64,000 nt of DNA from a candidate division WWE3 bacterium RAAC2_WWE3_1 (GTDB lineage: Bacteria > Patescibacteriota > WWE3 > UBA101185 > UBA10185). Positions 3,093-58,121 of the stretch are shown one piece after another. Below the pieces are notes generated by a model that was not told where the DNA came from, did no database searches, and worked only from the letters and a program-made list of their open reading frames with translations. Every line of letters starts with the position of its first letter. Position 1 is the first letter of the stretch. The stretch is taken from assembly GCA_000503835.1 (NCBI GenBank), contig CP006914.1, forward strand, positions 45,790-109,789, written 5' to 3'. A program made the translations under genes and the position numbers.

Positions 3093-3917
3093 ATGACTCT
3101 TTTTCAATCTATTATCATGGGAATAGTTCAGGGTCTTACCGAGTTTATACCGGTTTCCTCTTCCGGGCATCTAATAATTTTTCCGGAACTGTTCGGCTGG
3201 GAACAGGGCGGTTTGGCTTTTGATACAACCCTGCATTTAGGTACGTTAGCCGCACTTCTTGTTTATTTTTATAAAGACCTCAGAAGAATGGTTCTTTCCC
3301 TAATAAGAGATGCAGGGAAATCGACATATCATTTCAGCCGGTATTCTCCGGAAAGTAAACTGGTTGTTTGGTTACTTATCGCTACGGTACCTGCCGGATT
3401 AGCCGCTTTTTTATTTGGAGACTATTTGGAAAGTACTTTCAGAAGCATGTTAAGCGTCTCAATATTTTTATTGCTGGGTTCAGTTCTGATGTTTTTTGCA
3501 GACAGGCTCGGGAAAAACGGGGATAAATCGCAGCCCGCACCCCCGATAAGTTATGGCAAAGTTATTGTCGCGGGTTTTTTTCAATGCCTGGCATTATTTC
3601 CCGGAGTTTCCAGATCGGGGTCAACTATTTCCGGCGGACTAATATCGGGACTGAACAGAACTCAGGCGGCAAGAATTTCATTCCTTCTCTCTATACCTAT
3701 AATAGCTGCAGCGGGTGCTTTTCAACTTCCCGATGCTTTGGCGGTGTATTCGGGCGCCGGTGCGGGTACTCTGATTTCAGGTTTTCTTACCAGTGCGCTG
3801 TCGGGATATCTGGCTGTGTCTTTTCTTATGAAGTATCTAAATTCTCACGGGTTAAGGTCATTTATTATTTACCGTGTGGTACTTTCAATTTTTCTCATTT
3901 TTTTGTACATCGCGTAA
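3093..3917 (+). CDS. uppP: Undecaprenyl-diphosphatase (UppP/BacA)
   Basis: 274-aa polytopic protein: MTLFQSIIMGIVQGLTEFIPVSSSGHLII...PGVSRSGSTISGGL. Confidence 0.88.
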   Translation: MTLFQSIIMGIVQGLTEFIPVSSSGHLIIFPELFGWEQGGLAFDTTLHLGTLAALLVYFYKDLRRMVLSLIRDAGKSTYHFSRYSPESKLVVWLLIATVPAGLAAFLFGDYLESTFRSMLSVSIFLLLGSVLMFFADRLGKNGDKSQPAPPISYGKVIVAGFFQCLALFPGVSRSGSTISGGLISGLNRTQAARISFLLSIPIIAAAGAFQLPDALAVYSGAGAGTLISGFLTSALSGYLAVSFLMKYLNSHGLRSFIIYRVVLSIFLIFLYIA

Positions 3918-3955
3918 CACCCGCCCGGTTAAGCGGTGATATAATCATTCTCGAT

Positions 3956-6505
3956 ATGTTTAAGTTATTTGTTGATTCAAACGAAAAACAGCTGAAGAAA
4001 ATAGAGCCTTTGGTAGCTGCAATAAACTCTCTGGAACCCGCTGTCAGTAAGATGACCCGGGTGGAGATGCTTTCCAAAGTGGAAGACTGGAAGAAGGAAT
4101 TGTCGGGATTGGACTACGACGCTCAAAAAAAAGTTATGGAAAAAATACTTCCCGAAGCTTTTGCATTTGTCCGCGAAGCCTCCGTTAGGACCTCGGGTAA
4201 GCGTCATTTCGACGTCCAGCTCATGGCCGGTGTGGTCTTGCACGAAGGTAAAATTTCCGAGCAAAAGACCGGGGAAGGAAAAACTCTTACGGCGACCCTT
4301 CCATTATTTTTAAATTCGCTGACGGGACGGGGGGCTCATTTGGTCACCCCCAACGATTACCTCTCCAGGCACGGCGCAGGTTGGATGGGTGATATATACA
4401 CTTACCTGGGAATAAGCGTAGGAGTAATAATGCAGGAAAGGGCTTTTGTTTACGACAGTACTCACGAAGGAACCGAATTCGACGATATCTACGCCGTACA
4501 TCTGAGAGAAGTTTCCCGGCAGGAAGCCTATAAATGTGGAATTGTGTATGGAACTAACCACGAGTTCGGTTTTGATTATCTTAGGGATAACATGGTGCGC
4601 TCGTTAGGCTCCATGGTTCAGACGAATCCGAACGGAGAGTTCGGCGTTCACAACTTTGCTATCGTCGATGAAGTCGATTCTATTTTGATTGATGTCGCAA
4701 GAACCCCGTTGATAATATCAGCCGCGGATGCCAAACCTTCCTCAAGATATTTTGACGCCGATCGGATAGTAAAAACTTTAGCCAAAAATTCCGATTACGA
4801 AGTAGAAGAAAAGTATAAAAACGTAACACTGACCGACCTCGGTATAAGGCGGGTAGAAAGACTGTTGGGTGTTAGCAATTTATATGAGCAGGATTTCGAG
4901 ATGGTTCATTTGATGGAAGAAGCTCTTACTGCCCACGCTTTATATGAGAAAGACCGTGATTATGTTGTTAAAGACGGAAAGGTTGTAATTGTTGATCAGT
5001 TCACCGGAAGATTACTCCCCAGCAACAGGTTTTCTCACGGGCTTCATCAGGCAATCGAGGCAAAAGAAGGAGTAGAGATTCAGCAGGAGTCAAAAACCCT
5101 GGCGGAAATTTCCTACCAAAATTATTTTAGAATGTACAAAAAGCTCGCCGGTATGACGGGAACTGCCGCGACCGAAGCCGAGGAATTTTACAAAATATAT
5201 AAGCTCGATGTTGTAGCCATTCCTACCAACAAACCCAATACCAGAAAAGATCAGAACGATGTTGTTTATAAAACGGAAAGCGCCAAATTTAAAGCCGTAG
5301 CAGATGACATTGTAAAAAGGCACTCTAAAGGTCAGCCGGTTCTGGTGGGAACTACTTCGGTTGAGAAAAGTGAACAGTTGCACGAACTTCTTTCGAGAAG
5401 AAAAGTTCCTCATGAAATATTAAATGCAAAAAATCACGAACGGGAAGCGTTAATAATCGCCCAGGCGGGAAGAAAAGGCGGGGTGACCATTTCGACTAAT
5501 ATGGCAGGTAGAGGTGTCGACATCGTTTTGGGCGGCGACCCTCCGGTTGAAAACGAACAAAAAGAGGTTATTGATGCGGGAGGGCTTTATGTTATTGGTA
5601 CAGAAAGACATGACTCGAGAAGAATTGATAATCAGTTAAGAGGGCGTTCAGGCAGGCAGGGAGATCCGGGCGAGACCAGGTTCTTCGTTTCACTTCAGGA
5701 CGACCTGATGAGGATTTTCGGCGGTGAGCAGGTAAGTAAAATGATGGACAGGTTCGGTATCGACGAAACAATTCCTTTGGAAGCGGGTTTAGTTACCAGG
5801 TCGATTGAAAACGCACAAAAAAGAGTAGAAGGGTTCAACTTCGATCGCAGAAAACAAGTTGTCGAAATGGACGATGTTATAAATGTTCACCGTGAAGTTA
5901 TCTATTCTCTCAGACGTAGAATACTCGAGCTTGAATCGGGTGTCACCGAACATAAAGACTGGCTGATGCAGAAACTCGCCTCCTCGTCCGTACTTAACGA
6001 AGAACTTTGGGCGGAAAAAGAAAAGGAATTTGGGGAGGACACATGGCTTGATATTGTTTCAGATTGGAGCCTTCCGGTTATTGATAATTTTTGGATGGAC
6101 CACCTTGTTGATATGGACCAGGTACGTGAGGGTATCGGGCTAAGAGGTTACGCACAAAGGGATCCGATGGTGGAGTATAAGAAAGAAGGCCACGAGAGAT
6201 TTGAAATATTACTCGGGCGCATCTATTCTTTTGTCGGGGAAAGATTAAGTAAGGCGAGCAGTGCTACGGTGGTAAAGACATCCGCGGCAGAAGACGCTCT
6301 CTTATCAAGATTGAACTATCAGCACGGTGAATTGGAAACAGGAGTTTCGGAAGAAGCGGCTGCCAACAAGACACCGAGAGTTGTGGACCAGATGGGTAGG
6401 GTTCTTAAGGTCGAGCAAATATTATCGGGAAAAGTTAAAGTCGGAAGAAACGATCCGTGCCCCTGCGGCAGCGGGAAGAAATACAAACACTGTCATGGAA
6501 AGTAA
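3956..6505 (+). CDS. secA: Preprotein translocase ATPase SecA
   Basis: MFKLFVDSNEKQLKK..., DEAD-like motor and C-terminal zinc-binding tail CPCGSGKKYKHCHGK. The track ORF 3584.. is an in-frame N-terminal over-extension into uppP. Confidence 0.92.
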   Translation: MFKLFVDSNEKQLKKIEPLVAAINSLEPAVSKMTRVEMLSKVEDWKKELSGLDYDAQKKVMEKILPEAFAFVREASVRTSGKRHFDVQLMAGVVLHEGKISEQKTGEGKTLTATLPLFLNSLTGRGAHLVTPNDYLSRHGAGWMGDIYTYLGISVGVIMQERAFVYDSTHEGTEFDDIYAVHLREVSRQEAYKCGIVYGTNHEFGFDYLRDNMVRSLGSMVQTNPNGEFGVHNFAIVDEVDSILIDVARTPLIISAADAKPSSRYFDADRIVKTLAKNSDYEVEEKYKNVTLTDLGIRRVERLLGVSNLYEQDFEMVHLMEEALTAHALYEKDRDYVVKDGKVVIVDQFTGRLLPSNRFSHGLHQAIEAKEGVEIQQESKTLAEISYQNYFRMYKKLAGMTGTAATEAEEFYKIYKLDVVAIPTNKPNTRKDQNDVVYKTESAKFKAVADDIVKRHSKGQPVLVGTTSVEKSEQLHELLSRRKVPHEILNAKNHEREALIIAQAGRKGGVTISTNMAGRGVDIVLGGDPPVENEQKEVIDAGGLYVIGTERHDSRRIDNQLRGRSGRQGDPGETRFFVSLQDDLMRIFGGEQVSKMMDRFGIDETIPLEAGLVTRSIENAQKRVEGFNFDRRKQVVEMDDVINVHREVIYSLRRRILELESGVTEHKDWLMQKLASSSVLNEELWAEKEKEFGEDTWLDIVSDWSLPVIDNFWMDHLVDMDQVREGIGLRGYAQRDPMVEYKKEGHERFEILLGRIYSFVGERLSKASSATVVKTSAAEDALLSRLNYQHGELETGVSEEAAANKTPRVVDQMGRVLKVEQILSGKVKVGRNDPCPCGSGKKYKHCHGK

Positions 6506-9822: not shown

Positions 9823-12800
9823 ATGAGAGAAACTTTTTCTAAAAGAAAAATAGCTTTAAATCTTCCAAACTTAGCAGATATACAATTAAATTCGTACAAC
9901 TGGCTCATGAACGAGGGTCTTAAGGAGATCCTTGAAGAGCTGGGGACCGTCGAGGACAGTTCTGGCAGAGGCTGGGTTGTTACCCTCTCCGATCCTTCTA
10001 TAGAGAAGGAGAACATTTCCATACCCGAAGCTAAAAGGACGGGCAGAACCTACGACGCTCCCTGGTATGTCAAGGCGACAATAGAAGACCCTTTAACAAA
10101 AAAGAAGAAGGTATCCAATATATACATGGGCGATCTTCCTCTAATGACTCAAAGGGGAACCTTCGTGATCAGCGGTGTTGAGAGAACTATTGTTAATCAA
10201 TTAATCAGGGCAGAAGGAGTTCTCTTTACGGGAGAACTCTCTCCCGTTACGGGACAATTCCTGGCAGGTGCTAAGATATTGCCCAAGAGCGGTGTCTGGC
10301 TTGAGTTTGAAACCTCGAGGAACGGTGTCCTTAGCGTAAGGATTGATAGGAAAAGAAAACTAGCGGTTACCACACTCTTGAGAGTCTTCGGACTTGAGGA
10401 AGACGATGACATAAGAAAAGTATTCGAAAATGTCGAGTCAAATCCCGAAATAAATTACATAAATGAAACATTAGCAAAAGACCCGGCTTCCAGCTTTGAA
10501 GAATCCTGCATTGAGATCTATAGAAAAATGAGACCGGGAGAACCTTTGGTGCTGGAGAACGCCAAAGCTCTTGTAGCAGCCATGTTCTTCAACAAAAGAA
10601 GATTTAGCATGGGCCATGTCGGGAGATTTAAGTTGAACAAGTCACTCGGTCTGAACATACCCAACGATCCGGATCACAGACTCCTTACTTTAGAGGATCT
10701 GATAAAGATAGTTTCAAAAATAATCGAACTGAATAATGGTGTCGGTATGCCGGACGATGTGGACTTTCTGGGTAACAGGCGTGTTAAAAGTGTGGGAGAA
10801 CTTCTTCAGTGGCAGATGAGGATAGGCTTCTTAAGAATGGAAAAGAACATCAAGGAAAGAATGTCCTTATCCCCGCGCGAAACCCTTCCTGAACCGTCGG
10901 TATTGATATCACCCAGAGCCATAGCAGCGGCTGTTCACAGCTTTTTCGCTACAGGTCAGCTGTCTCAGCTTCACGATCAGCAAAATCCTTTAACCGCACT
11001 GGATCATTTGAGAAGACTTTCGGTTTTAGGACCGGGCGGTCTTACAAAGGAAAGGGCAAGTTTCTCGGTAAGAGACGTCCATTATTCTTCGTTCGGAAGA
11101 GTTTGTCCTGTCAGAACTCCGGAAGGCCCGAACATAGGTCTGATCAACTATCTGGCTTCTTACGCTAAAGTAAACGAATATGGTTTTTTGGAAACTCCTT
11201 ATATTAAACTTGAGAAAAAACCCTCGGGAGAGATTAGACTTACCGACGAGATAGTTTATCTGGCAGCCTACGACGAAGAGAACGCTCATATTACGGACCA
11301 ATCGGTTGCTGTGGACGCAAAAGGTTTCATCACGGACAAGCAGGTTCCTCTTCGAAAAGGAGGCAATTTCTTCCTGGGTGATGTCGCTTTAGCAGAATAT
11401 ATTGAGGTTGTTCCCCGACAGGTCGTCGGTGTGGCCGCAGGACTTATTCCTTTCTTACAAAATAACGATATCGCAAGAGCACTTATGGGAACCCAGCAAA
11501 TGTCTCAGGCGGTTCCTTTGGTTAAGCCGGAGACTCCTATTATCGGAACAGGTATCGAGGGTGAAATCGCCCGAAATACAAACGCACTTATTCTTGCAGA
11601 TGAAGACGGAGTTGTTGAGTACGCTGACGCCAGAAAAGTAATTGTTAAATACGGACGCGGCGGTAAAGGTTCCAAAGTAGAATACACAGCCGCTAAATTT
11701 GAACAAACCAACAGCGACACCTGCTTTAATCAATATGTCGTAGTCGAAACCGGCCAGAAAGTAAAAGAGGGTGACGTACTTGTCGAAGGCCCCGCTGTTA
11801 ACAATGGTGAGTTATCTATCGGAACAAATATGAAAGTTGCCTATATGATTTACGAAGGCTTGGAATTTGAAGACGGCATCGTAATTTCGGACAGATTGGT
11901 AAAAGAAGATGTATTAACCTCAATTCACGTTTCCGACTATCAGACTTCGGTACAGGAAACAAAGCTCGGGCCTGAGGAAATCACAAGAGACATACCTAAC
12001 GTTTCTGAGGAATCATTGAGAAATCTGGATGAAGACGGAATAGTAGCCGTCGGTTCCAAAGTAAAATCCAGCGATATTCTTGTAGGTAAGGTCGCTCCCA
12101 AAGGGGAAATGGATCTGACATCGGAGGAAAGACTTCTTAGAGCTATTTTCGGTGAAAAAGCTAAGGATGTCAGGGACACGTCTTTGTATATGCCCCACGG
12201 TGAGCACGGTGTCGTTATTGGCATAAAAAGGGTTACAAAAAAGGACAACGAGTCTTTACCCGCGGGAACAATCGAGAGAATTACCGTGTACGTTGCTCAG
12301 CAAAAGAAAATAGACATCGGGGATAAATTAGCGGGAAGACACGGTAACAAAGGTGTTATCTCCGCAATAGTTCCTGTTGTGGACATGCCCATGCTCCCTG
12401 ACGGTTCTACGGTCGACATAATATTCTCTTCAGAAGCGGTCCTGAAACGTATGAACGTGGGTCAGTTACTTGAAGCTGCCCTCGGAATGGCAGGAAAAGC
12501 GCTGGGAAAGACTTATGAAGTTCCTTCTTTGCAGGAAATTCCTGAAGAACTTATTGAAGCGGAATTGAAAAAAGCGGGTCTTCCCGTGTCGGGAAAAACA
12601 AAACTTATCGATGGAAGGAACGGAGAGTATTTCCAGAATGAGATTGTCGTGGGTGACACATATATTCTTAAACTCATTCACATGTCGGAAGAGAAAATGC
12701 ACGCCAGGTCGACGGGTCCTTACTCCTTAATAACACAGCAGCCTCTCGGAGGTAAAGCTCAGTTCGGCGGACAAAGGTTCGGAGAAATGGAAGTATGGGC

Positions 12801-13125
12801 TCTTGAGGCTTACGGTGCCGCAAACATACTTAAGGAAATATTGACCATTAAATCGGACGACATGCTGGGAAGGACTCAGGCTTATAGCGCAATGGTCCAG
12901 GGTAAAGAAATACCCGAATCATCGGTTCCGGAAACATTTAAGTTACTGGTCAGAAAACTTAACGGATTGGGTCTGGGTCTTGAAGCTTACTCTTCTGAGG
13001 AAGATTCGGGTCCGGTCGAGGAAGTTGAAGAAAGCGCACAGGAAGTTGTGGATGCTTCCATGAAAGCGGTCGTAGAGGCAGCAAGTGAAGAAATTTCCGA
13101 GCAGGAGGCGGAATCGGAAGAATAA
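9823..13125 (+). CDS. rpoB: DNA-directed RNA polymerase subunit beta (compact, 1100 aa)
   Basis: Conserved blocks, e.g. ...GRHGNKGVISAIVP..., ...RFGEMEVWALEAYGAA...; AGGGGAAAA SD. Confidence 0.95.
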   Translation: MRETFSKRKIALNLPNLADIQLNSYNWLMNEGLKEILEELGTVEDSSGRGWVVTLSDPSIEKENISIPEAKRTGRTYDAPWYVKATIEDPLTKKKKVSNIYMGDLPLMTQRGTFVISGVERTIVNQLIRAEGVLFTGELSPVTGQFLAGAKILPKSGVWLEFETSRNGVLSVRIDRKRKLAVTTLLRVFGLEEDDDIRKVFENVESNPEINYINETLAKDPASSFEESCIEIYRKMRPGEPLVLENAKALVAAMFFNKRRFSMGHVGRFKLNKSLGLNIPNDPDHRLLTLEDLIKIVSKIIELNNGVGMPDDVDFLGNRRVKSVGELLQWQMRIGFLRMEKNIKERMSLSPRETLPEPSVLISPRAIAAAVHSFFATGQLSQLHDQQNPLTALDHLRRLSVLGPGGLTKERASFSVRDVHYSSFGRVCPVRTPEGPNIGLINYLASYAKVNEYGFLETPYIKLEKKPSGEIRLTDEIVYLAAYDEENAHITDQSVAVDAKGFITDKQVPLRKGGNFFLGDVALAEYIEVVPRQVVGVAAGLIPFLQNNDIARALMGTQQMSQAVPLVKPETPIIGTGIEGEIARNTNALILADEDGVVEYADARKVIVKYGRGGKGSKVEYTAAKFEQTNSDTCFNQYVVVETGQKVKEGDVLVEGPAVNNGELSIGTNMKVAYMIYEGLEFEDGIVISDRLVKEDVLTSIHVSDYQTSVQETKLGPEEITRDIPNVSEESLRNLDEDGIVAVGSKVKSSDILVGKVAPKGEMDLTSEERLLRAIFGEKAKDVRDTSLYMPHGEHGVVIGIKRVTKKDNESLPAGTIERITVYVAQQKKIDIGDKLAGRHGNKGVISAIVPVVDMPMLPDGSTVDIIFSSEAVLKRMNVGQLLEAALGMAGKALGKTYEVPSLQEIPEELIEAELKKAGLPVSGKTKLIDGRNGEYFQNEIVVGDTYILKLIHMSEEKMHARSTGPYSLITQQPLGGKAQFGGQRFGEMEVWALEAYGAANILKEILTIKSDDMLGRTQAYSAMVQGKEIPESSVPETFKLLVRKLNGLGLGLEAYSSEEDSGPVEEVEESAQEVVDASMKAVVEAASEEISEQEAESEE

Positions 13126-13140
13126 TTTCCGCATATAAAT

Positions 13141-16100
13141 ATGAAAGACATTAGTCAATTAAAAGATTTTGACGCAATAAAAATATATCTGGCATCAAGT
13201 CAGGAATTATTGAGCTGGTCGTACGGAGAGGTTACAAAACCCGAGACCATAAACTACAGGACTTTCAAACCCGAAAGAGAAGGACTTTTCGATGAGCGCA
13301 TCTTCGGTCCTTCCAAAAATTACGAATGCTATTGCGGAAAGTACAAAGGAATAAGGTACAAAGGTGTTTTGTGTGATAAGTGCGGTGTCGAGGTAACACA
13401 TTCCAGAGTGAGAAGAGAAAGAATGGGACATATAAAACTTTCCTCTCCGGTAGCTCACGTTTGGTTCTTCAAAGGCATTCCGTCAAAGATGGCTCTATTG
13501 CTTGATCTCACACCGAGGAACGTGGAATCGGTGGTCTATTTCGCGTCATTCATAGTTACGGCCATGGACGGCAAGAAAAAGGCTGAAGCGATAGATATGG
13601 TCACAAAAGATTTCGAAAAAGTTAAAGCTCAGATAAATAAGGAGGCCGATGCAAAAGTGCAGGAGGTAGAAGTTGAGCTGAAGAATATTGCAAAAATTCC
13701 CGAAGAAATAAAACGCGCCGAAGAGGAAAGGAAGATTAGAGAAAAGACTCAGCAAATAAGGACACAGTACGAAAAAAAGATAGAGGAGCAGGAAAAACAT
13801 TTCAAGATAGTTCAAAAGAAAATTGAAAGTGTCGAACAGTACTCGGTCATATCCGAGAACGAATATATACAATTGGTAAATTATCTCGAAATATTCGCTC
13901 AGTTGGAAATCGGAGCAGAAGCTTTACAGAATATATTAAAAAGCATGAATCTTAACGATCTCTCGGAAAAACTCAGATTGGATCTGACTACTTCCAAGGG
14001 ACAGAAGGCTCAAAGAATAAACAAAAGACTTAAAGTTGTAGAACAGTTCAGGAAGGCGAACATCTCCCCCGATAGAATGATTATGGAAATAATTCCGGTG
14101 ATACCCCCGGATCTTAGACCTATGGTTCAGTTGGAGGGCGGACGATTTGCAAGTTCCGACTTGAATGATCTTTACAGACGATTGATTAATAGAAATAACC
14201 GTTTGGGCAGGCTGCTGGATTTGGGTGCCCCCGAAATCATTGTAAGGAACGAAAAAAGAATGCTGCAGGAATCAGTTGACGCACTTTTTGACGCTTCCAA
14301 ACAAAGACAAAAAACAAGAGTTACCAGAGGTAAAAAGGAATTGAGGTCCCTGGCCGATATGATAAAGGGTAAGCAGGGCATATTCCGTTTGAACCTGTTG
14401 GGAAAAAGGGTCGATTACTCAGGAAGAGGCGTTATCATAAACGGTCCCAATTTAAAATTGAACGAATGCGGACTTCCTAAAGACATGGCTCTTGAACTAT
14501 TCAAACCCATGGTTCTGAGGGAAATACTTGGGAGAGGGTATGCACCTAATGTAAAAAGTGCGAAATACTATCTTGAATCACGCGTGCCTGAGGTTTGGGA
14601 TATTCTTGAGGAAGTAGTCAAGGATCATCCGGTTCTTCTGAACCGTGCACCTACTCTCTGGAGGCTGGGTATTCAGGCATTCTATCCGAAGTTGGTAGAA
14701 GGTAACTCAATAAAACTTCATCTGTGTGTATGCTCAGGCTATAACGCTGACTTTGACGGAGACCAAATGGCAGTTCATGTTCCGTTGGGTGAAAAAGCTA
14801 TAGAAGAGGCCAAAACAGTGATGATATCCACCAACAATTTGCTGAATCCTTCGAACGGATCTCCAATTTCAATACCCACAAAAATAATGTTGTTTGGGGT
14901 TTACTACATCACATCCGTTGATGAGAAACTTCCGTTGTTCGAAAGAGTTTTCAGTGACGAATACGAACTTATGCATGCGGTCGATGCTACCGGAGAAGTA
15001 ACTTTACGACAAAAGATAAAAATAGGGATTAACGGCGAGATTGTAGAAACTACGTACGGTAGACTCATATTCAACAGGGTTGTTCCGGAAAGGTTTGGGT
15101 ATGTCAATCATACAATGGATAAGAAACAGATTAACTCAATCCTACAGAGAACTTTCGAAACGGAACCAAACGAGGTAGTTGTTAAATTCATTGATGACCT
15201 TAAGGATCTCGGGCTAAAGTACGGAACCATCAGCGGTCAGTCGGTTTCCCTGTCTGATATTCAGGTTCCTCAGGCAAGAGTTTCAATTATAACTAAAGGA
15301 AAAGAAACGGTAGCCGAAATCGAGTCTAACTACAAAAGGGGCTTGATTACAAGGGCTGAGGCTTCAAGACTTAAAGAAGATACATGGAATAAAGTGATTT
15401 CCGACCTTGACGCGGCAATTTGGGATGCGTTGGCCGACGATAACCCGGTTAAGGTTTTGGTCAAATCAGGTTCAACACGTGCTTCAAGGGATCAGGTTAA
15501 ACAAGTTGCGGGTATGAAAGGTTTGGTCGTTGATACATCTGGTAAGACGGTTGAAGTTCCTATTCTTGGCAACTATAAATACGGATTATCGGCTTTGGAG
15601 TACTTCATCGGAGCTAAAGGTGCGAGAAAAGGATTGGTGGACAAGGGTTTGAAGACAGCTGACGCCGGCTACTTGACCAGAAGACTTGTGGATGTTTCAC
15701 AGGATGTTATCGTTCGCGTCGAAGATTGTGGTACAGAGCACGGTAGGACAATGAAAGTAGGGGAAGGAACCTTACTTCAAACTTTTGCAGACAGAGTGAT
15801 AGGACGCTATCTTGCTTCGGACGTGAAAGTTAAAGGAAAGACCCTGGTAAAAAGAGGTACGTTGCTTTCGCGCGAAGACGTGGCAAAAATAGAGGCTGCA
15901 GGCATCGAAAACATTGTTATCAGGTCCCCCATGCACTGTGAAACCAGAAGAGGTATCTGCGGTAAGTGCTACGGAAAAGATCTGATGACGGGAAAACTTG
16001 TAAACATGGGGACTGCAGTAGGTGTCGCAGCGGCTCAATCCATCGGTGAGCCGGGCACTCAGCTCTCCATGAGAACCTTTCACACCGGAGGTATTGCAGG

Positions 16101-16809
16101 AAAAGATATTACCCAGGGTTTGCCCAGAGTTGAAGAACTGGTCGAGGCAAGAGCACCTAAATTCCTTTCTTTAATGTCGGATATTACAGGTGTTGTAAAC
16201 ATAGTCAAAAGCGGTGACGAAAGAAAGATCATTGTTATCCCCACGGACCGTGATGAGGACGCCGCCGAATATTTGGTGGATCCGGTCGAAGAAATAATAG
16301 TCAAGGAAGGTGAAATTGTCGCAAAAGGCGAAAAGTTAACTGCAGGCAACCTCGATCTTACTGACCTGTTCAGAACCGTAGGAGTTGATGAGACCAAGAG
16401 ATACATAATTGAGGAAATCCAGAAAGTTTATGCTTCCCAGGGTGTTGCCCTAAATGATAAGCACATCGAAATAATCGTTAAACAAATGTTCAATCACGTG
16501 AAAATCGATGAGGTCGGGGACACAGAGTTTATGGAAGGCGAACTTAGTACCAAAGCCAGATTCATGGAAGTAAACGAGGAAGTTATTGCCAGTGGCGGAA
16601 CCCCCGCGACAGGGAAACTTACCATGCTTGGAATTACCAGAGCTTCGTTAAACACGGACAGTTTCTTATCTGCAGCTTCATTTATTCAGACAAGTAATGT
16701 GTTGACCGACGCAGCAGCTTCTGGTAAGGTTGATTATCTTTTGGGATTGAAAGAAAATGTCATAATTGGTAGATTAATCCCGACAGGAGATCGTGCCAGA
16801 TTGGAGTAA
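13141..16809 (+). CDS. rpoC: DNA-directed RNA polymerase subunit beta'
   Basis: Zinc finger [23 protein letters not shown], catalytic [12 protein letters not shown] motif, 1222 aa. Confidence 0.95.
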
Positions 16810-53568: not shown

Positions 53569-53826
53569 ATGGAAGAAGTAACTACATATAAAAATCCAAA
53601 CTCGAAAGTGATAATAAAAGTCATAAATGATAAATGTATAAGTGCGGCGACCTGTATAATTCACGCGCCCGAAACTTTTGATCTCAACCCCGATGGTATT
53701 GTGTACGCGAAAGAAGGAACGTGGGATGAGGCCGAGAAAATTATCAAAGGGGCAAAATCCTGTCCGACAACTGCGATAATTGTCGAAGACCTTGAAGGCA
53801 ACGTGTTGTATCCTGAGAACAAATAG
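53569..53826 (+). CDS. Single-cluster [3Fe-4S]/[4Fe-4S] ferredoxin (Fer4_13/15, P450-partner type)
   Basis: DKCISAATCIIHAPETFDLNPDGIVYAKEG...SCPTTAIIV: a C-x5-C ... CP pattern like actinobacterial Fdx. Confidence 0.7.
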   Translation: MEEVTTYKNPNSKVIIKVINDKCISAATCIIHAPETFDLNPDGIVYAKEGTWDEAEKIIKGAKSCPTTAIIVEDLEGNVLYPENK

Positions 53827-53844
53827 ACAGGTGTCTATATCTTA

Positions 53845-53873
53845 TTGAACTTTCCCGGGGCATTGTATATACT
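53845..53873 (+). promoter_or_regulatory. Sigma70-like promoter: -35 TTGAAC (53845-53850), 17-nt spacer, -10 TATACT (53868-53873), ahead of the radical SAM gene.
   Basis: Hexamers read directly; AAGGA SD 8 nt before ATG 53900. Confidence 0.5.
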
Positions 53874-53899
53874 AAACAGATGAAAAAAGGATTTTTCCG

Positions 53900-55513
53900 A
53901 TGAAAATTGCGATAGGCTACCCTCCAATAGATCAGCTTAAAGGAGTTCCTTTATTATCTCAGAATAGGCAGTTCCAGTATTTCAACGCCCCCACATATAT
54001 TTACCCCATGGTTCCGGCTTATGCGGCTTCTTTGGCCAAAGAACGGGGATACAATGTGGTTTGGATGGACGGAATCTCCGAGAAGAAAACGTACGCAGAA
54101 TGGCTCACCGAGCTTGAAAATGAAAAGCCCGATTATCTTATGATGGAGACCAAAGCTCCGGTTCTAAAGTTCCATTGGAAAATAATAGATGAAATTAAAG
54201 TGAAATTTCCTAACATGAAGGTGGTTTTGGTAGGAGATCATGTTACCTGGAATCCTGTTGAAACGCTGGATGCCTGCAAAGTAGATTACATCATAACGGG
54301 GGGCGATTACGACTTTTTGCTTAGTGATATGGTCGATGCCATTAAAAATAATGCCTTTTTACCGGGTGGAATTTACGGAAGAAAAGAAGACACCGGCGTA
54401 TCGATTGATCCCAAGTGGCTGAAGATGCACAAGTCCGAAATATCCGGAGAAGAAGCATACTTTCAGAGTGGTCCTTTAGAGCTTCAACATAATCTTGATG
54501 ATCTTCCTTTTGTTGACCGTGACCTTACCAAGTGGAAACTTTACGCGTATGCGAACGGAAATTATAAATACACACCGGCGACCTACATGTATTCAGGAAG
54601 GGATTGCTGGTGGAACAGGTGTACCTTTTGTGTTTGGGACCATACACTAAATCCCAAAGGATTTTACAGAAGGTTTTCTCCCGAAAGGCTTTTCGCGGAA
54701 GTTAAACATGTTGTCGATAACTACGGGGTCAAAGAAATTTTTGACGACGCCGGAACCCTGTTTGTAGGACCTCCCCTGAAAAAGTTTTGTGAGCTGTTAA
54801 TAGACTCGGGGTATAACAAGAAAGTTGTTTTCGGGTGCAATATGCGTTTGAATGCTTTAACCTCCGAATATTACCGGTTAATGGGCAAGGCTAATTTTAG
54901 GTTTATTTTATACGGAATGGAGTCTGCGAACCAATTTACTTTAGATAAGCTGGACAAAGGTCTTCAGGTTGAAGAGATTGCGGAAGGTGCCAAAATGGCC
55001 AAAAAGGCAGGTTTGGAGCCCCATATTACAGTAATGCTCGGGTATCCTTGGGAGACTGAGGAAATGGCTCAAAAAACAATAGATTTAGCCAAGGATTTGT
55101 TTAAAAGAGGCTATGTTGACACAATGCAGGCTACAATCGTCATTCCCTATCCCGGAACTCCTTTGTATAAAGAGTGTGTTGAAAAGGATTGGCTGCAGGT
55201 CGGGGCGAAAGATTATGAAAAGTTTGATATGAGGGCGCCGGTCATGAAGATACCTTTTTCGAATGAACATCTGTACGAGCTGACCCAATCACTGTATTCC
55301 TCATTCTTTACCCCTCAGTATATTTTCAGAAAAGTTGTGTCTGTTAGAAATTGGAACGATGTAAGATTTCTCTGGTATTCGGCCTGGAAATTGATAGGCC
55401 ACCTTTTGGATTTTGATAAGGAACAGACTCGGGTAAATTGGTTATCGCCAAAGTTCTGGGGAAATGCGTTAAAAAGTATGTTCGGAACTGCCGCCGTGGC
55501 CAAGAAAGAATGA
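53900..55513 (+). CDS. B12-binding-domain radical SAM enzyme (class B-like) with a non-canonical Cx4Cx2C cluster motif
   Basis: N-terminal B12-binding-like region (DYLMMETKAPVLKFHWKIIDEIKVKFPNMKVVLVGDHVT); SGRDCWWNRCTFCVWDH; downstream radical SAM TIM-barrel blocks. Confidence 0.7.
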   Translation: MKIAIGYPPIDQLKGVPLLSQNRQFQYFNAPTYIYPMVPAYAASLAKERGYNVVWMDGISEKKTYAEWLTELENEKPDYLMMETKAPVLKFHWKIIDEIKVKFPNMKVVLVGDHVTWNPVETLDACKVDYIITGGDYDFLLSDMVDAIKNNAFLPGGIYGRKEDTGVSIDPKWLKMHKSEISGEEAYFQSGPLELQHNLDDLPFVDRDLTKWKLYAYANGNYKYTPATYMYSGRDCWWNRCTFCVWDHTLNPKGFYRRFSPERLFAEVKHVVDNYGVKEIFDDAGTLFVGPPLKKFCELLIDSGYNKKVVFGCNMRLNALTSEYYRLMGKANFRFILYGMESANQFTLDKLDKGLQVEEIAEGAKMAKKAGLEPHITVMLGYPWETEEMAQKTIDLAKDLFKRGYVDTMQATIVIPYPGTPLYKECVEKDWLQVGAKDYEKFDMRAPVMKIPFSNEHLYELTQSLYSSFFTPQYIFRKVVSVRNWNDVRFLWYSAWKLIGHLLDFDKEQTRVNWLSPKFWGNALKSMFGTAAVAKKE

Positions 55514-55544
55514 GTACGCGTTTGAGTACAAAAGTAATCTTCAA

Positions 55545-55590
55545 CTTAAAAAAGAAAAGCCGCGAATTGTTTTTTTAAACATCGCGGCTT
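55545..55590 (-). terminator. Intrinsic terminator for the minus-strand small-ORF operon: 9-bp stem (aagccgcga/tcgcggctt); on the minus strand it is followed by UUCUUUUUUAAG.
   Basis: Inverted repeat and the T-run orientation read directly; no T-run on the plus strand. Confidence 0.55.
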
Positions 55591-55598
55591 TGTAAATC

Positions 55599-55907
55599 TT
55601 AGTTAGCATCGGCGAGCTCAAGTTCGTCGTTAATAACGGGGTCCAGGTGAGCGTCGACAAGTGTCTTATTGTTAATTGACACGGCACTGAAGTCTTTCGG
55701 TAGAGTGCTCACATTCACCAAAACTCCTCGTTTCATCCTGGTCACCTGAACCGTAAAATACCTTTCCTGATCGCGTTCAGGGTTTACATACGAGTTTAGG
55801 TTTATGTACAACCTGCCCCCGCTTTTAATAAAGGCGCCCGGTGAAACGAATACCGTCGTGTTCACGGGTTTGGTACGAAGAGTAACCATCGGATCCGAAA
55901 TATGCAT
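55599..55907 (-). CDS. Hypothetical protein F (102 aa); paralog of protein E
   Basis: AAAGGAGAAAA SD immediately upstream. Shares TV.-VS..F...GG.LYIN and TLP...PV..ELE blocks with E. Confidence 0.6.
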   Translation of the reverse strand: MHISDPMVTLRTKPVNTTVFVSPGAFIKSGGRLYINLNSYVNPERDQERYFTVQVTRMKRGVLVNVSTLPKDFSAVSINNKTLVDAHLDPVINDELELADAN

Positions 55908-55922
55908 TTTTTCTCCTTTCTC

Positions 55923-56216
55923 TTAGTTTGAATAGCCGATGAAGCTTTCTTCCAGCTCAACCGGTCTGAAGTTAAACTGTCTTATCACCCAATTGTCCAA
56001 AACCGGTACTTCAAGAAAGGCAGGTAAGGTACATATAGCTACTGTTACGCTGGCAACGAGCGTGATAATGCGTATCGTTTGTTTGGTCGCCAGATTGCAG
56101 GTCAGGCTCACAATCTCCTCGGAGTTTATGTATAGATCTCCTTCGTAGAATGCAAAGACGTCCTGCGAAACATAAGCTACTGTGTACTTTGGCAGATCGG
56201 CAAGTCTGTACAACAT
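55923..56216 (-). CDS. Hypothetical protein E (97 aa) with one predicted TM helix
   Basis: GAGGAG SD 8 nt upstream; 10-nt gap from gene D; hydrophobic IRIITLVASVTVAICTLPAFL. Confidence 0.55.
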   Translation of the reverse strand: MLYRLADLPKYTVAYVSQDVFAFYEGDLYINSEEIVSLTCNLATKQTIRIITLVASVTVAICTLPAFLEVPVLDNWVIRQFNFRPVELEESFIGYSN

Positions 56217-56226
56217 TCTCGGCTCC

Positions 56227-56454
56227 TCAGACTGATATGTATTTCCTCATTGTTCTGACGTATTCCCGTAACAGGTGTCTGAATCTGACTGTAATCTGCG
56301 GGTCCGTTTCGCAAGAGACGTCGATAAAGAATCCCTTTCTGCTCTTTAATACTTCGACGTTGAGATAGTCCGTTCTGTATTTCTCAGCCGCTAGCAATTT
56401 GATTACGTGATCCACCGCATCCTTCGCGTTCCGGTACGACAAAAAGTACGGCAT
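56227..56454 (-). CDS. Hypothetical protein D (75 aa)
   Basis: AAAGGGGA SD before the internal ATG 56454; the longer form (to 56487) would overlap gene C. Confidence 0.5.
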   Translation of the reverse strand: MPYFLSYRNAKDAVDHVIKLLAAEKYRTDYLNVEVLKSRKGFFIDVSCETDPQITVRFRHLLREYVRTMRKYISV

Positions 56455-56473
56455 CTCGGTCCCCTTTCGGTTA

Positions 56474-56770
56474 TCAGTATGGCTCAAACAACTTCGACAT
56501 GAGCTGTTTGAGAGCTATTACCGGGATGTATTCGCCGGTTGCCAGTTTTTCCCTGCTTATGACGTTATTTTTTGCTTTACTGGTGTCGATGTCCATTGTA
56601 TGAAGAATGGAATGCACCCGCCTGACCAGAATGTCGGACTTACTGTTTCCGGACGGATAGCACATGGTGTTTTGGTTGACGAAGCAAATGCCTCCGTCAT
56701 TCGAGTAAAGATCCTCTTCCCTGATGTACGCAGCCTCCCAATTTCTCAGTTCTCTTACGGCTTTCACCAT
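56474..56770 (-). CDS. Hypothetical protein C (98 aa)
   Basis: AAAGAGAGGAGAG SD 6 nt upstream of ATG 56770; the track's longer 56857 start lacks an SD. Confidence 0.5.
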   Translation of the reverse strand: MVKAVRELRNWEAAYIREEDLYSNDGGICFVNQNTMCYPSGNSKSDILVRRVHSILHTMDIDTSKAKNNVISREKLATGEYIPVIALKQLMSKLFEPY

Positions 56771-57007
56771 ATCGCTCTCCTCTCTTTGGATTATTGTTAT
56801 TGATGGGATTCTATCAGCACAACGGGGTGTTTTCAAATCAGTCGGGGCAATATGCATTTTACGTTATGCACAGTCCTTATTTTTCATAAAATTTGCATTA
56901 AAAAATGGTTGGGTATAGTGAGTGCTATCTCCCGCGAAAAGTAATAATTCTTCCCAATTAATAGGATATACTACTCATCGAAAATCATGTCCAGTTTAGA
57001 TTTCCAT

Positions 57008-57047
57008 TTAAAAAAGAGGCCCGTTGTGTTTTGTTGGAACAACGGGC
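57008..57047 (-). terminator. Intrinsic terminator after hypothetical gene B: stem gcccgttg/caacgggc, then CUCUUUUUUAAA on the minus strand.
   Basis: Read directly; the U-tract is only on the minus strand. Confidence 0.55.
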
Positions 57048-57073
57048 TTTAGGCTCTAATAATAAACCTGGTT

Positions 57074-57304
57074 TTACTTGGCCGGGGTAAAGCAAATTGT
57101 TTTCCGGTTGGTCTTTTCACAACAGGCATTGTGGTGTTTCAAAGCAGTTACGAAGTTTTTTGCCTGTTCCGGTGATTCGGAGTAAAAAGTGATACGACTG
57201 CGCTCAGCATCTACGTCATAGTGCTGGTTTTCAAACACATGCACTTTCACTCCGACCTCCATTGCCCGTCCTAAATCATCAGGTCCACTGAAATTAATTC
57301 TCAT
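57074..57304 (-). CDS. Hypothetical protein B (76 aa)
   Basis: AAGGGAGG SD upstream; the terminator follows. Confidence 0.5.
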   Translation of the reverse strand: MRINFSGPDDLGRAMEVGVKVHVFENQHYDVDAERSRITFYSESPEQAKNFVTALKHHNACCEKTNRKTICFTPAK

Positions 57305-57381
57305 TGCCTCCCTTACCTTTCTGTGCCGGTTTACTTTCTGAAATAGGTTCCAACTCTTAGTTTTTGGGTTATTCTTCTACT

Positions 57382-57600
57382 TCAAGAAATCTCCTTTCTC
57401 GCCTCCCGGACAAGCTTGTACGATGCTCCTGAAATGCCCGACATAACCAGCTCCCTTATCAGGAAATCGGCTTCATGTCCTTCGCATAAACTTATCAGGA
57501 GTTTGGGGGAGTCGTAGAGCCAGGGAAAATCGCTTTTACGAAGTAATTCCAGACCCGCAGAAAACGCTTCCTCCGTTAAGAAGTAAAAGTCGTACGTCAT
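57382..57600 (-). CDS. Hypothetical protein A (72 aa)
   Basis: AAAGGGAGG SD 5 nt upstream of the ATG; weak similarity to proteins D and C (SCE...R.LxRE). Confidence 0.5.
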   Translation of the reverse strand: MTYDFYFLTEEAFSAGLELLRKSDFPWLYDSPKLLISLCEGHEADFLIRELVMSGISGASYKLVREARKEIS

Positions 57601-57670
57601 GTAGCCTCCCTTTCGTGTCGATTTATTGACAACAGTCTATCAAATCTTGGTGTTATAGTAAAATTAGTAA

Positions 57671-58102
57671 ATGTACATAATACTCACGGAAATGGGACAC
57701 CTGAGCCTTTCTTTATTGATAGGATACGCGTGTTTTAAGATTTTTAGACGCATTTCCGGCTTCGTACCGGCTTTATTATCGGGATTTTTTGTGGATTTTG
57801 ACCACCTGATCGATTATTTTATTCACAAAGGGTTGAGCTTTGATGTAAGCAACTTCATTTCCGGGCGGCATTACCATGAAACCAATACTTCTTATATATT
57901 TTTTCATAGCTGGGAACTTGTTTTGTTCCTGGGTGTCCTTACTTACTATTCGAAGAAAAAATATATTTGGTGCCCTTTAGTTCTCGGACTGACGTTTCAT
58001 TTATTGTGGGATTACTTAACGAATCCGGTTCACTGGTATACGTACTTTTTTACCGCGAGATATTTACTGGGCTTCGCGCTGGATAAACTTTTCGTTTTCT
58101 AG
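57671..58102 (+). CDS. Membrane-bound metal-dependent hydrolase, YdjM/DUF457 family
   Basis: GHLSLSLL..., DFDHLIDY, HSWE..., HLLWDYLTNP: His/Asp motif pattern in a 4-TM protein. Possible extended -10 TGTTATAGT at 57651-57659. Confidence 0.5.
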   Translation: MYIILTEMGHLSLSLLIGYACFKIFRRISGFVPALLSGFFVDFDHLIDYFIHKGLSFDVSNFISGRHYHETNTSYIFFHSWELVLFLGVLTYYSKKKYIWCPLVLGLTFHLLWDYLTNPVHWYTYFFTARYLLGFALDKLFVF

Positions 58103-58121
58103 GTTGTAGTACAATATACAA

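Follow-up and report, generated by a model that had tools for sequence, protein, structure and literature searches.

The 64,000-nucleotide stretch of DNA analysed here (the window) derives from the 878-kb genome of the candidate division WWE3 bacterium RAAC2_WWE3_1 and contains six small genes, A to F, which lie head-to-tail on the minus strand and encode proteins of 72-102 aa (Table 1). This arrangement, proposed in an initial annotation, is borne out by the ORF calls in the window, and in GenBank all six genes (P147_WWE3C00001G0101-0106) are annotated as hypothetical. The gaps between the genes measure 9-77 bp in the window and there are no overlaps. The island is set in a conserved envelope-glycosylation cluster with an HpnJ-like B12-radical-SAM (rSAM) gene on one side and a gene encoding a 143-aa membrane protein on the other, and the C-F unit runs convergent with the end of the rSAM gene. 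The annotated start of gene C is located upstream of a conserved promoter, and the shorter form of the protein is therefore taken as correct. Rfam and tRNA scans across the window gave no matches. The genome was described by Kantor et al. (2013; PMC3812714) in a paper that does not cover these six genes and reports no proteomics in its text, and a literature search for the WWE3 island found no paper.

Table 1. Genes and putative expression signals of the six-gene island (positions in the window)
Feature	Position	Strand	Description
Putative A-B promoter	57634..57662	-	TTTACT, 17 nt, (TGa)TAGACT, extended -10
Gene A	57382..57600	-	72 aa, acidic pI 4.8, P147_WWE3C00001G0106
Gene B	57074..57304	-	76 aa, P147_WWE3C00001G0105
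A-B intrinsic terminator	57007..57047	-	stem GCCCGUUGU / ACAACGGGC, then CUCUUUUUU
C-D-E-F promoter	56808..56836	-	TTGAAA, 17 nt, (TGa)TAGAAT
Gene C	56474..56770	-	98 aa, P147_WWE3C00001G0104 (annotation: 127 aa)
Gene D	56227..56454	-	75 aa, basic pI 9.6, P147_WWE3C00001G0103
Gene E	55923..56216	-	97 aa, acidic pI 4.4, P147_WWE3C00001G0102
Gene F	55599..55907	-	102 aa, mostly-beta, P147_WWE3C00001G0101
C-F intrinsic terminator	55545..55591	-	stem AAAGCCGCG... / ...CGCGGCUUU, then UCUUUUUU

All six ATGs are preceded at 5-9 nt by a Shine-Dalgarno sequence (GGGAGG for A and B, GAGAGGAGAG for C, AAGGGGA for D, GAGGAG for E and AAGGAG for F), of which that of D is the weakest. The sequence signals fit two sigma-70-type units, A-B and C-D-E-F, each with its own promoter and terminator as had been suggested initially, and these signals are kept across species. 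The C-D-E-F promoter is the top match of a simple scanner (10/12 with TG) and is conserved in 5 species. Motif and spacing of the A-B promoter are conserved in 5 species as well, but since the scanner made no call there this promoter is considered putative; it is located in a 70-bp divergent region common to the gene of the 143-aa membrane protein. The hairpin 3' of B consists of a 9-bp GC stem followed by CUCUUUUUU, and both hairpin and T-tract are kept in 5 species. The hairpin 3' of F (dG -21.6, z -4.9 on folding) is followed by UUUUCUUUUUU; this terminator is kept in 7 species and carries a compensatory GCCACG/CGTGGC change in one of the related loci (L011). Each hairpin is joined to a U-tract in the minus orientation only, as folding finds no U-tract in the plus orientation. 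The spacer that separates the B terminator from the C promoter includes about 150 extra bp, for which a repeat or MITE origin was considered and rejected, as no second copy exists in the window.

The island genes evolve considerably faster than their surroundings. Identity to the sister species is 34-55% for the island proteins versus 73-92% for the flanks, A being at 55% (pN 0.27, pS 0.68) and C, the fastest-evolving of the six, at 34%. Likewise, pN in the island (0.23-0.36) is 2.5-5.6 times that of the flanks (0.06-0.09). For all six orthologues in the sister species pN (0.27-0.44) nevertheless stays below pS (0.68-0.86), and the average omega of about 0.12-0.16, where computable, indicates purifying and not diversifying selection. 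The ORFs are short, gene callers differ over D and over where C begins, and a deletion allele of E exists, all of which might be expected of spurious ORFs or decaying pseudogenes. The probability of this explanation is nevertheless negligible, given that the frames are preserved, and pN is far below pS, even between lineages in which synonymous sites have become saturated, that Shine-Dalgarno sequences, promoters and terminators are conserved, and that AF2 gives high-confidence models for B and F despite shallow alignments. The genes are real, and are fast-evolving yet under purifying selection.

None of the six proteins has a match at cut-off level in Pfam-A, NCBIfam, PHROGs or PADLOC, in line with the initial failure to name a family for any of them; the alignments of A, B, D and E/F were scanned member by member and C as the window protein alone. 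Within the A, B, D and E/F alignments no two members match a common family, and the profile searches assign no ORF to a well-known housekeeping family. Profile hmmsearch against the PDB (threshold E < 1e-3) reached best E-values of 0.04-0.6 for B, C, D and E/F, and the profile of gene A returned zero matches. The suggestion that the locus holds something undescribed is therefore upheld at the level of novel families of real genes but does not extend to a new kind of system, as nothing shows one. The locus amounts to a well-documented cluster of orphan genes rather than a new system. In CPR bacteria, orphan gene clusters are common in the genomes.

Orthologues of the six genes are confined to a narrow WWE3 subclade of at least 8 lineages, and the 11 distinct sequences of family A come from this subclade without exception. 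Island families are present at 6/6 genome loci where the rSAM protein is at least 81% identical and at 0/74 where it is at most 79% identical. Among this more distant set, at least 14 island-free loci from WWE3, Roizmanbacteria and Microgenomates have the 143-aa membrane-protein gene and/or a GT2 gene about 10-220 bp after the rSAM gene on the same strand. Since the rSAM and membrane-protein genes are adjacent in distant WWE3 and Microgenomates, the island represents a single ancestral insertion, and the comparison of synteny confirms its suggested status as an indel among related genomes. The insertion took place once, in the ancestor of the subclade, and has been inherited vertically thereafter. 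The proposed accessory status applies insofar as most WWE3 lack the island and it is far from universally conserved, but within the subclade it is found in every examined genome at the same locus and passes vertically. The same synteny is seen at all of the 30-plus loci obtained from genomes, metagenomes and exact-match look-ups, and the island proteins form 8-10 clusters among 5.8 billion proteins and 6 among 1.84 billion representatives. Mobility of the island was considered from a comparison of two loci (L090 and L105) with an island pS of 0.009 and a flank pS of 0.22, but was rejected since the break is away from the island borders, in the 5'-terminal part of the rSAM/ferredoxin region close to a contig end.

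E and F are clearly paralogous (hhalign 99.2%, E 1.4e-19), as had been noticed at the outset, and C is probably a third member of this family (C-F 72.5%, E 3.3e-5 over 83 columns; C-EF 75.9%, E 2.3e-5). The earlier notion of an amplified small-protein family is thus sound as to the amplification, but not as to its membership, which had been extended to A and D through a pattern shared with C. A-D and A-C comparisons give E-values of only 0.27-0.29, and the A/C/D motif is unsupported by BLASTP and hhalign even with 9-14 sequences per family. A transmembrane helix had also been assigned to one of the proteins (E, residues 50-68). This assignment does not hold, as the orthologues are not hydrophobic there and the stretch aligns to a beta hairpin of the F model; none of the six is a membrane protein. 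The AF2 model of F is confident although it comes from a shallow alignment, and C, E and F are predicted to adopt a common beta-rich fold without a solved analogue, a structure search of the PDB having found none for the F model. In BFVD the model matches uncharacterised actinophage proteins only (E 2.7e-5 to 5e-3, TM 0.63-0.67), among which Foldseek identified the predicted structures of proteins from Rhodococcus phage Weasels2 and from Clavibacter phage CN1A; overall the phage likeness has TM scores of 0.53-0.67 between what are in all cases predicted models. No relatedness at the sequence level accompanies this likeness in the records searched: the E/F HMM found nothing in 100 kb of the Weasels2 genome (KX774321; best E 0.16), and tblastn of F against 50,697 phage records in INPHARED gave a best E of about 1.

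The structural likeness raises the question of whether the island descends from a phage or other mobile element and has been domesticated, akin to the moron or early-gene cassettes of phages and possibly serving in superinfection exclusion or anti-defence. Like such cassettes it comprises small ORFs with strong Shine-Dalgarno sequences that are tightly packed on the strand opposite to local transcription under their own promoters and terminators. In addition, GC3 is elevated (0.55 versus 0.45 +/- 0.035 for the remaining genes of the window), and the junction into which the island is inserted hosts other orphan insertions elsewhere in WWE3. Unlike phage cassettes, however, the island has no phage genes nearby, has been passed on vertically in at least 8 lineages and keeps to a single chromosomal locus throughout. 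It consists of six small ORFs with no integrase, structural or replication genes, no direct repeats longer than 13 nt or att-like repeats flank it, and its overall codon usage is ordinary. None of the families has a PHROG match, searches of IMG/VR viral contigs gave no relatives, for D among others, and no copy was found in a mobile or viral context. This origin is therefore thought unlikely. The more specific version, according to which C, E and F share a novel beta-rich fold with the actinobacteriophage proteins and the island is a domesticated phage cassette whose products would be protein inhibitors deployed in conflict with phages or the host cell, is more doubtful still. If true, it would represent a phage-derived, CPR-specific conflict module without described counterpart, and a true link between F and the phage proteins would by itself mean that phage-derived genes have become fixed in a CPR chromosome.

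B is the sole family found in all island variants. Its AF2 model is confident, again from a shallow alignment, and is predicted to have a ferredoxin-like beta-alpha-beta-beta-alpha-beta fold, a pattern which also appears to apply to A and D when their secondary structure is read by eye. The predicted fold of B is like those of ACT, MzrA and HMA-type stand-alone domains, although at 5-17% identity and without a Pfam match. Compared with ACT proteins, B shows the expected order of secondary structure in its model, but is a stand-alone gene with no match in the Pfam ACT clan and 5-17% identity to ACT structures, and unlike HMA domains it lacks CxxC and has no ligand- or metal-binding motif. As ferredoxin-like is among the commonest of small folds, it tells little about function, and the invariant residues of B, as those of E/F, are largely hydrophobic or structural and give no enzyme signature. 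Several other relationships of B were considered and discarded. A match to DUF4031 (E 0.006) is attributed to chance as it occurs in just 1/8 family members, the long repeat proteins matched by the B profile (P0044, P0046-51) align in several short stretches within repeats and represent noise, and a B-like tblastn match at window positions 3578-3739 (E 0.007) is treated as spurious because hhalign covers only 18 columns with a probability of 6% and the match overlaps the bacA/secA genes. The hhalign comparison of A with B, at E 0.0066 over 38 columns, is too marginal for a relationship to be claimed. Constraint is strongest in family D, which has 22 columns that are invariant in 5 species and an invariant ETDP...RFxHL motif, and the number of polar residues that never vary in it (E, D, R, H) suggests that it could be catalytic or nucleic-acid-binding.

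B carries C-terminal cysteines and the adjoining B12-binding rSAM gene is weakly similar to rSAM families of RiPP maturation, a combination that could point to RiPP precursor peptides awaiting modification by the neighbouring enzyme. This is exceedingly improbable, since the rSAM-ferredoxin pair is conserved far past the range of the island, with the 74 loci above being devoid of island genes, and since the best match of the rSAM protein is HpnJ-like. Moreover, the genes are convergent with the enzyme and separately transcribed according to their signals, orthologues of B do not retain its cysteines, and B and F are modelled as confidently folded domains rather than leader-core peptides.

The content of the island varies among close relatives. 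A is missing from L013, where B is retained; L038 and L106-109 have F but lack E (which is gone from the L038/L108 lineage), and C is lost from the L011/L112 lineage. The smallest island consists of A and B (L014), whereas the island of one species (L010) has a duplicated A2-s2-B2 segment that provides extra A-like and B-like copies. E furthermore shows a segregating 171-bp in-frame deletion (56013-56183) in three samples and may by itself be on its way out in some strains. This variation bears on the possibility that A-B, C-D and/or E-F form type II toxin-antitoxin pairs, which the island resembles in its adjacent small genes, its two-gene-like units, its acidic and basic partners (A, D and E) and its lineage-specific, accessory setting. 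Toxin-antitoxin pairs are nonetheless very unlikely here: no toxin or antitoxin domain is found in any of the six proteins in Pfam, NCBIfam or PADLOC, the genes do not overlap, they are lost independently of one another so that pairing is not obligate, E and F are paralogous to each other unlike a toxin and its antidote, and the predicted fold of B is generic.

Alternatively, the proteins might be regulators or accessory subunits of the glycosylation and radical-SAM machinery, with B for instance acting as an ACT-like ligand sensor on the flanking enzymes or on the divergently transcribed membrane protein. The island has a fixed place in the glycosylation cluster in every genome that bears it, and the promoter regions of A and of the membrane-protein gene overlap. 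On the other hand, the block of rSAM, ferredoxin, membrane-protein and GT2 genes is island-free in most WWE3, Roizmanbacteria and Microgenomates, the island proteins outpace the enzymes they would serve in divergence by a factor of 2.5-5.6, and single genes are freely lost. A regulatory role of this kind is considered quite improbable.

The explanation that is favoured, with somewhat better than even confidence, is a vertically inherited orphan-gene island of small, independent, non-enzymatic binding proteins. A taxonomically restricted cluster entered between the rSAM and 143-aa membrane-protein genes and was later reshaped by tandem duplication (C/E/F, and the A-like and B-like copies), gene loss and rapid divergence under purifying selection. 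Its products would be small, soluble, cytoplasmic domains without enzymatic activity that may act as independent binders or modulators rather than jointly as parts of a machine or a pathway, as single genes are lost without their neighbours. Modular and individually dispensable small binding proteins are the most likely description. The retention and duplication of six fast-evolving genes in an 878-kb genome imply that they bring a real selective benefit. CPR genomes are tiny and about 40-50% of their proteins lack a known family (PMC3812714). The datable insertion, the fixed neighbours and the natural loss, duplication and deletion variants make this island a tractable case, and the locus suits the study of the roles that small lineage-specific proteins play in episymbiotic bacteria. 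The WWE3 lineage, as other CPR bacteria, is probably episymbiotic.

A role in conflict or interaction, in which the products would bind foreign proteins of phage, host or competitor in the manner of inhibitors or immunity proteins, is possible but not probable. Such a role would explain why the genes evolve fast and change in copy number and why the predicted fold of F is phage-like; the average omega is however purifying and the phage link of F is structural only. The orphan immunity-gene arrays of polymorphic-toxin systems and acquired interbacterial defence islands consist of tandem genes for small (70-150 aa), soluble and fast-evolving proteins. Like these arrays, the island has head-to-tail paralogues, a content that varies among close relatives, individually dispensable genes and no adjacent toxin, its neighbours being glycosylation genes. 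Unlike them, it has no match to Imm, SUKH or similar immunity families in Pfam, no recombinase or mobility, a fixed chromosomal locus and purifying selection on average. The stable, subclade-wide synteny with the glycosylation genes would fit a role tied to that cluster as well.

In RAAC2_WWE3_1 the island of six small genes (A to F) is an orphan gene cluster specific to its lineage; CPR genomes often carry clusters of this sort. The families it comprises were previously undescribed, and nothing found here indicates a new type of system. It is well supported that these orphan genes were inserted once, in an ancestor, and became fixed in one WWE3 subclade, and that the island evolves through duplication, loss and rapid divergence. 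The ORF coordinates agree with the initial annotation in placing the six genes head to tail on the minus strand. Exact protein look-ups find all six products encoded in the complete 878,109-bp RAAC2_WWE3_1 genome and in further records (ACD_25C00260G0003-8, GCA_003516475.1 and >120 sample blocks), in every one of which they are annotated as 'hypothetical protein'. The genome paper reports many glycosyltransferases and a big fraction of proteins without a family, and does not discuss the island genes (PMC3812714). GenBank entries AHB40051 and EKD94691 give C as a 127-aa protein starting at 56857, a start which lacks a Shine-Dalgarno (SD) sequence and precedes the conserved promoter. Because this promoter falls within the 127-aa model, the 98-aa form starting at 56770, which is backed by other annotations and by orthologues, is the correct one.

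Coordinates of the island, its surroundings and related loci (window positions unless a locus is named)
Feature	Position	Strand	Size	Remarks
Gene A	57600-57382	minus	72 aa	P147_WWE3C00001G0106
Gene B	57304-57074	minus	76 aa	within P147_WWE3C00001G0101-0106
Gene C	56770-56474	minus	98 aa	within P147_WWE3C00001G0101-0106
Gene D	56454-56227	minus	75 aa	within P147_WWE3C00001G0101-0106
Gene E	56216-55923	minus	97 aa	within P147_WWE3C00001G0101-0106
Gene F	55907-55599	minus	102 aa	P147_WWE3C00001G0101
A promoter	57662-57634	minus		TTTACT, 17 nt, TGaTAGACT; extended -10; conserved upstream of A
C-F promoter	56836-56808	minus		TTGAAA, 17 nt, TGaTAGAAT; top scanner match; conserved
AT-rich stretch	56860-57005		~150 bp	between B terminator and C promoter
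Deletion in E	56013-56183		171 bp	in-frame
Ferredoxin and rSAM genes	53569-55513	plus	rSAM 537 aa	B12-binding radical SAM (rSAM) protein
mem143	57671-58102	plus	143 aa	multi-pass membrane protein
rSAM, mem143, GT2 junction	55514-58121			
Presumed rpoB and rpoC	9823-16809	plus	1100 and 1222 aa	
L014 insertion	11684-11908		74 aa	one ORF
L015 insertion	11670-14570	minus	168-212 aa	three ORFs
L020 insertion	11769-14786	plus	129-169 aa	some genes paralogous
L021 insertion	11787-13308	minus	243 and 258 aa	two paralogues
L090 region	3600-4433			compared with L105

A to F are real genes. All six have orthologues in the sister species RIFOXYB1_FULL_43_24, with amino-acid identities of 34-55% (flanking genes 73-92%), pN of 0.27-0.44 and pS of 0.68-0.86. 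Across many species pairs pN is 0.23-0.36 for the island versus 0.06-0.09 for the flanks (ratio 2.5-5.6), and where dS is unsaturated omega is ~0.12-0.16 versus ~0.05. The island values therefore imply purifying selection, yet fast evolution, and a reading of the genes as pseudogenes is disfavoured. AF2 produced confident models from shallow alignments (pLDDT 91.3 for B and 81.5 for F). GC3 of the island is 0.55 versus 0.45 +/- 0.035 for the window's other genes, and its codon usage as a whole does not stand out.

Conserved signals for two transcription units on the island are well supported at the sequence level. Each gene has, as had been described, an SD; these are purine-rich, lie 5-9 nt upstream of the ATG and are weakest at D (AAGGGGA). 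Folding likewise bears out terminators that work in the minus orientation only: the minus-strand RNA 3' of F forms a hairpin with a dG of -21.6 kcal/mol and a z of -4.9 ahead of UUUUCUUUUUU, that 3' of B a 9-bp GC-rich stem ahead of CUCUUUUUU, and at both a U-tract is absent in the plus orientation. A simple terminator scanner missed both hairpins because their loops exceed its limit. Both terminators are kept in 5-7 species, and the F hairpin is maintained in L011 by the compensatory pair GCCACG/CGTGGC. The AT-rich stretch between the two units is present in the window species and missing from four sister species; it occurs nowhere else in the window, contains no conserved ORF and matches nothing in Rfam.

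The initial annotation described a real finding and was mostly correct, the exceptions being a proposed grouping of A, C and D and a transmembrane helix in E. The paralogy of E and F stands (blastp 25% identity over 89 aa; hhalign 99.2%, E 1.4e-19), and C is probably a third paralogue: it aligns end to end with F (hhalign 72.5%, E 3.3e-5, 83 columns) and reaches 75.9% against E and F together, in comparisons of family alignments of 10-19 sequences each, and a single ORF in locus L013 matches both the C and the E/F profiles. The A/C/D pattern did not survive family comparison, in which A and D give no signal and A and B a marginal one (E 0.0066). It probably arose because A, B and D share, as read by eye, a beta-alpha-beta-beta-alpha-beta layout starting 'M.y.F', which modelling confirmed for B only. 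The supposed helix, residues 50-68 of E, is hydrophobic there (KD 2.3), whereas in the orthologues, where K, G, D and R occur, KD is 1.0-1.2; on the F model the stretch falls at the beta hairpin of residues 53-64. Judged by hydropathy alone, none of the six has an N-terminal hydrophobic stretch fit for a signal peptide.

That none of the six belongs to a nameable family is upheld by searches of Pfam, NCBIfam, PHROGs and PADLOC, which gave no reproducible match for any member of the island families, and of PDB sequences, which no island profile matches. Going by the models, the fold of one family may be new. In B and in E/F, most of the invariant residues are structural; D is basic, carries the invariant motif ETDP...RFxHL and is the likeliest of the six to hold a specific active or binding site. 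The products would be small soluble domains, probably non-enzymatic, and RiPP precursors are disfavoured. Foldseek comparison of the F model with BFVD returned four uncharacterised phage proteins with TM-scores of 0.53-0.67: A0A6G5YFK0 (E 2.7e-5), A0A1I9SAK7 of Rhodococcus phage Weasels2 (E 3e-4), U5PXJ5 of Clavibacter phage CN1A (E 5e-3) and A0A6M3T8Q9. This likeness, of one predicted model to another, is a lead only, and no sequence-level trace of it was found. Relatives of A, B, D and F are absent from IMG/VR, and the island shows no integrase, flanking repeats or tRNA. That it is purely a phage remnant, a reading which overlaps with the favoured origin, is considered unlikely.

The insertion itself is read from synteny. 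Scanning 185,579 species genomes with the rSAM protein as query gave 80 loci, with island families in all six whose rSAM is >=81% identical (L010-L014, L038) and in none of the 74 at <=79%, which confirms the island as an indel relative to related genomes. In at least 14 of these 74, from other WWE3, Roizmanbacteria and Microgenomates, mem143 and/or GT2 follows rSAM on the same strand after ~10-220 bp; the ancestral order was therefore rSAM-mem143-GT2, into which the island was inserted. Metagenomes scanned with the D profile yielded 12 loci; in these, as in several look-ups of exact proteins, the island occupies this slot and no other. A search of 5.8 billion proteins gave eight clusters for E/F and ten for B, and exhaustively searching 1.84 billion representatives with HMMER gave six true B members. 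Long repeat proteins matching the B profile in several stretches (P0044, P0046-P0051; E 4e-9 to 3e-4) were treated as repeat-driven noise; the repeat unit, which in the 461-aa P0050 ('...LEAAGAFASNIGLVENVDYTVNNETQTITLT...') looks like the first half of B, may still be distantly related.

Within the clade the gene order is constant and the content variable. L010 has extra A-like and B-like copies and a novel 74-aa gene; L011 and L112 lack C; L038 and L106-109 lack E; L013 has only one E/F-like gene with C and B; and L014 and L091 combine A and B with a 74-aa orphan unrelated to the rest. B is the sole family found in every variant. An identical deletion, removing 57 of the 97 E codons with a junction implying ~7 bp of microhomology, occurs in the three independent samples SRR22387766, SRR22387748 and SRR22388068, and E is intact in two other samples of the window species from the same study series. 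Since partners are lost one at a time, the six do not form an obligate complex or pathway; toxin-antitoxin pairs are disfavoured, and the products may work independently as binders or modulators. A role in conflict or interaction is tentatively favoured, as it fits the fast evolution, copy-number change, single-gene dispensability and phage-like fold. A function linked with the surrounding glycosylation cluster seems improbable.

Nearly all genes of the 64-kb window are on the plus strand, including secA (Pfam-confirmed), ~25 kb of glycosylation genes in which the ferredoxin and rSAM pair is embedded, the presumed rpoB and rpoC, and ORFs which we assign to a ribosomal-protein cluster; coding stretches on the minus strand number only about three, the island among them. 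The top NCBIfam match of rSAM, a protein found here in organisms that lack hopanoids, is HpnJ (1e-44, far under the cut-off), and over all 80 loci its identity is 62-92%, with an adjoining ferredoxin in most. The gene mem143 follows rSAM in WWE3, Roizmanbacteria and Microgenomates, is named 'metal-dependent hydrolase' in UniRef and has no Pfam, NCBIfam or PADLOC match; as its start lies ~14 nt downstream of a conserved extended -10 (TGtTATAGT), its leader may be very short or absent. At the same junction other WWE3 genomes hold different, unrelated orphan insertions (see table), and a Pfam scan of nine of their ORFs and mem143 gave no match; this site appears to be a hot spot of lineage-specific genes. 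Over the island and the greater part of the rSAM gene, loci L090 and L105 are 99-100% identical; identity falls to 66-92% over the rSAM 5' end, the ferredoxin gene and GT2. The drop marks a recombination breakpoint or else a contig with a chimeric end, and lies away from the island borders.
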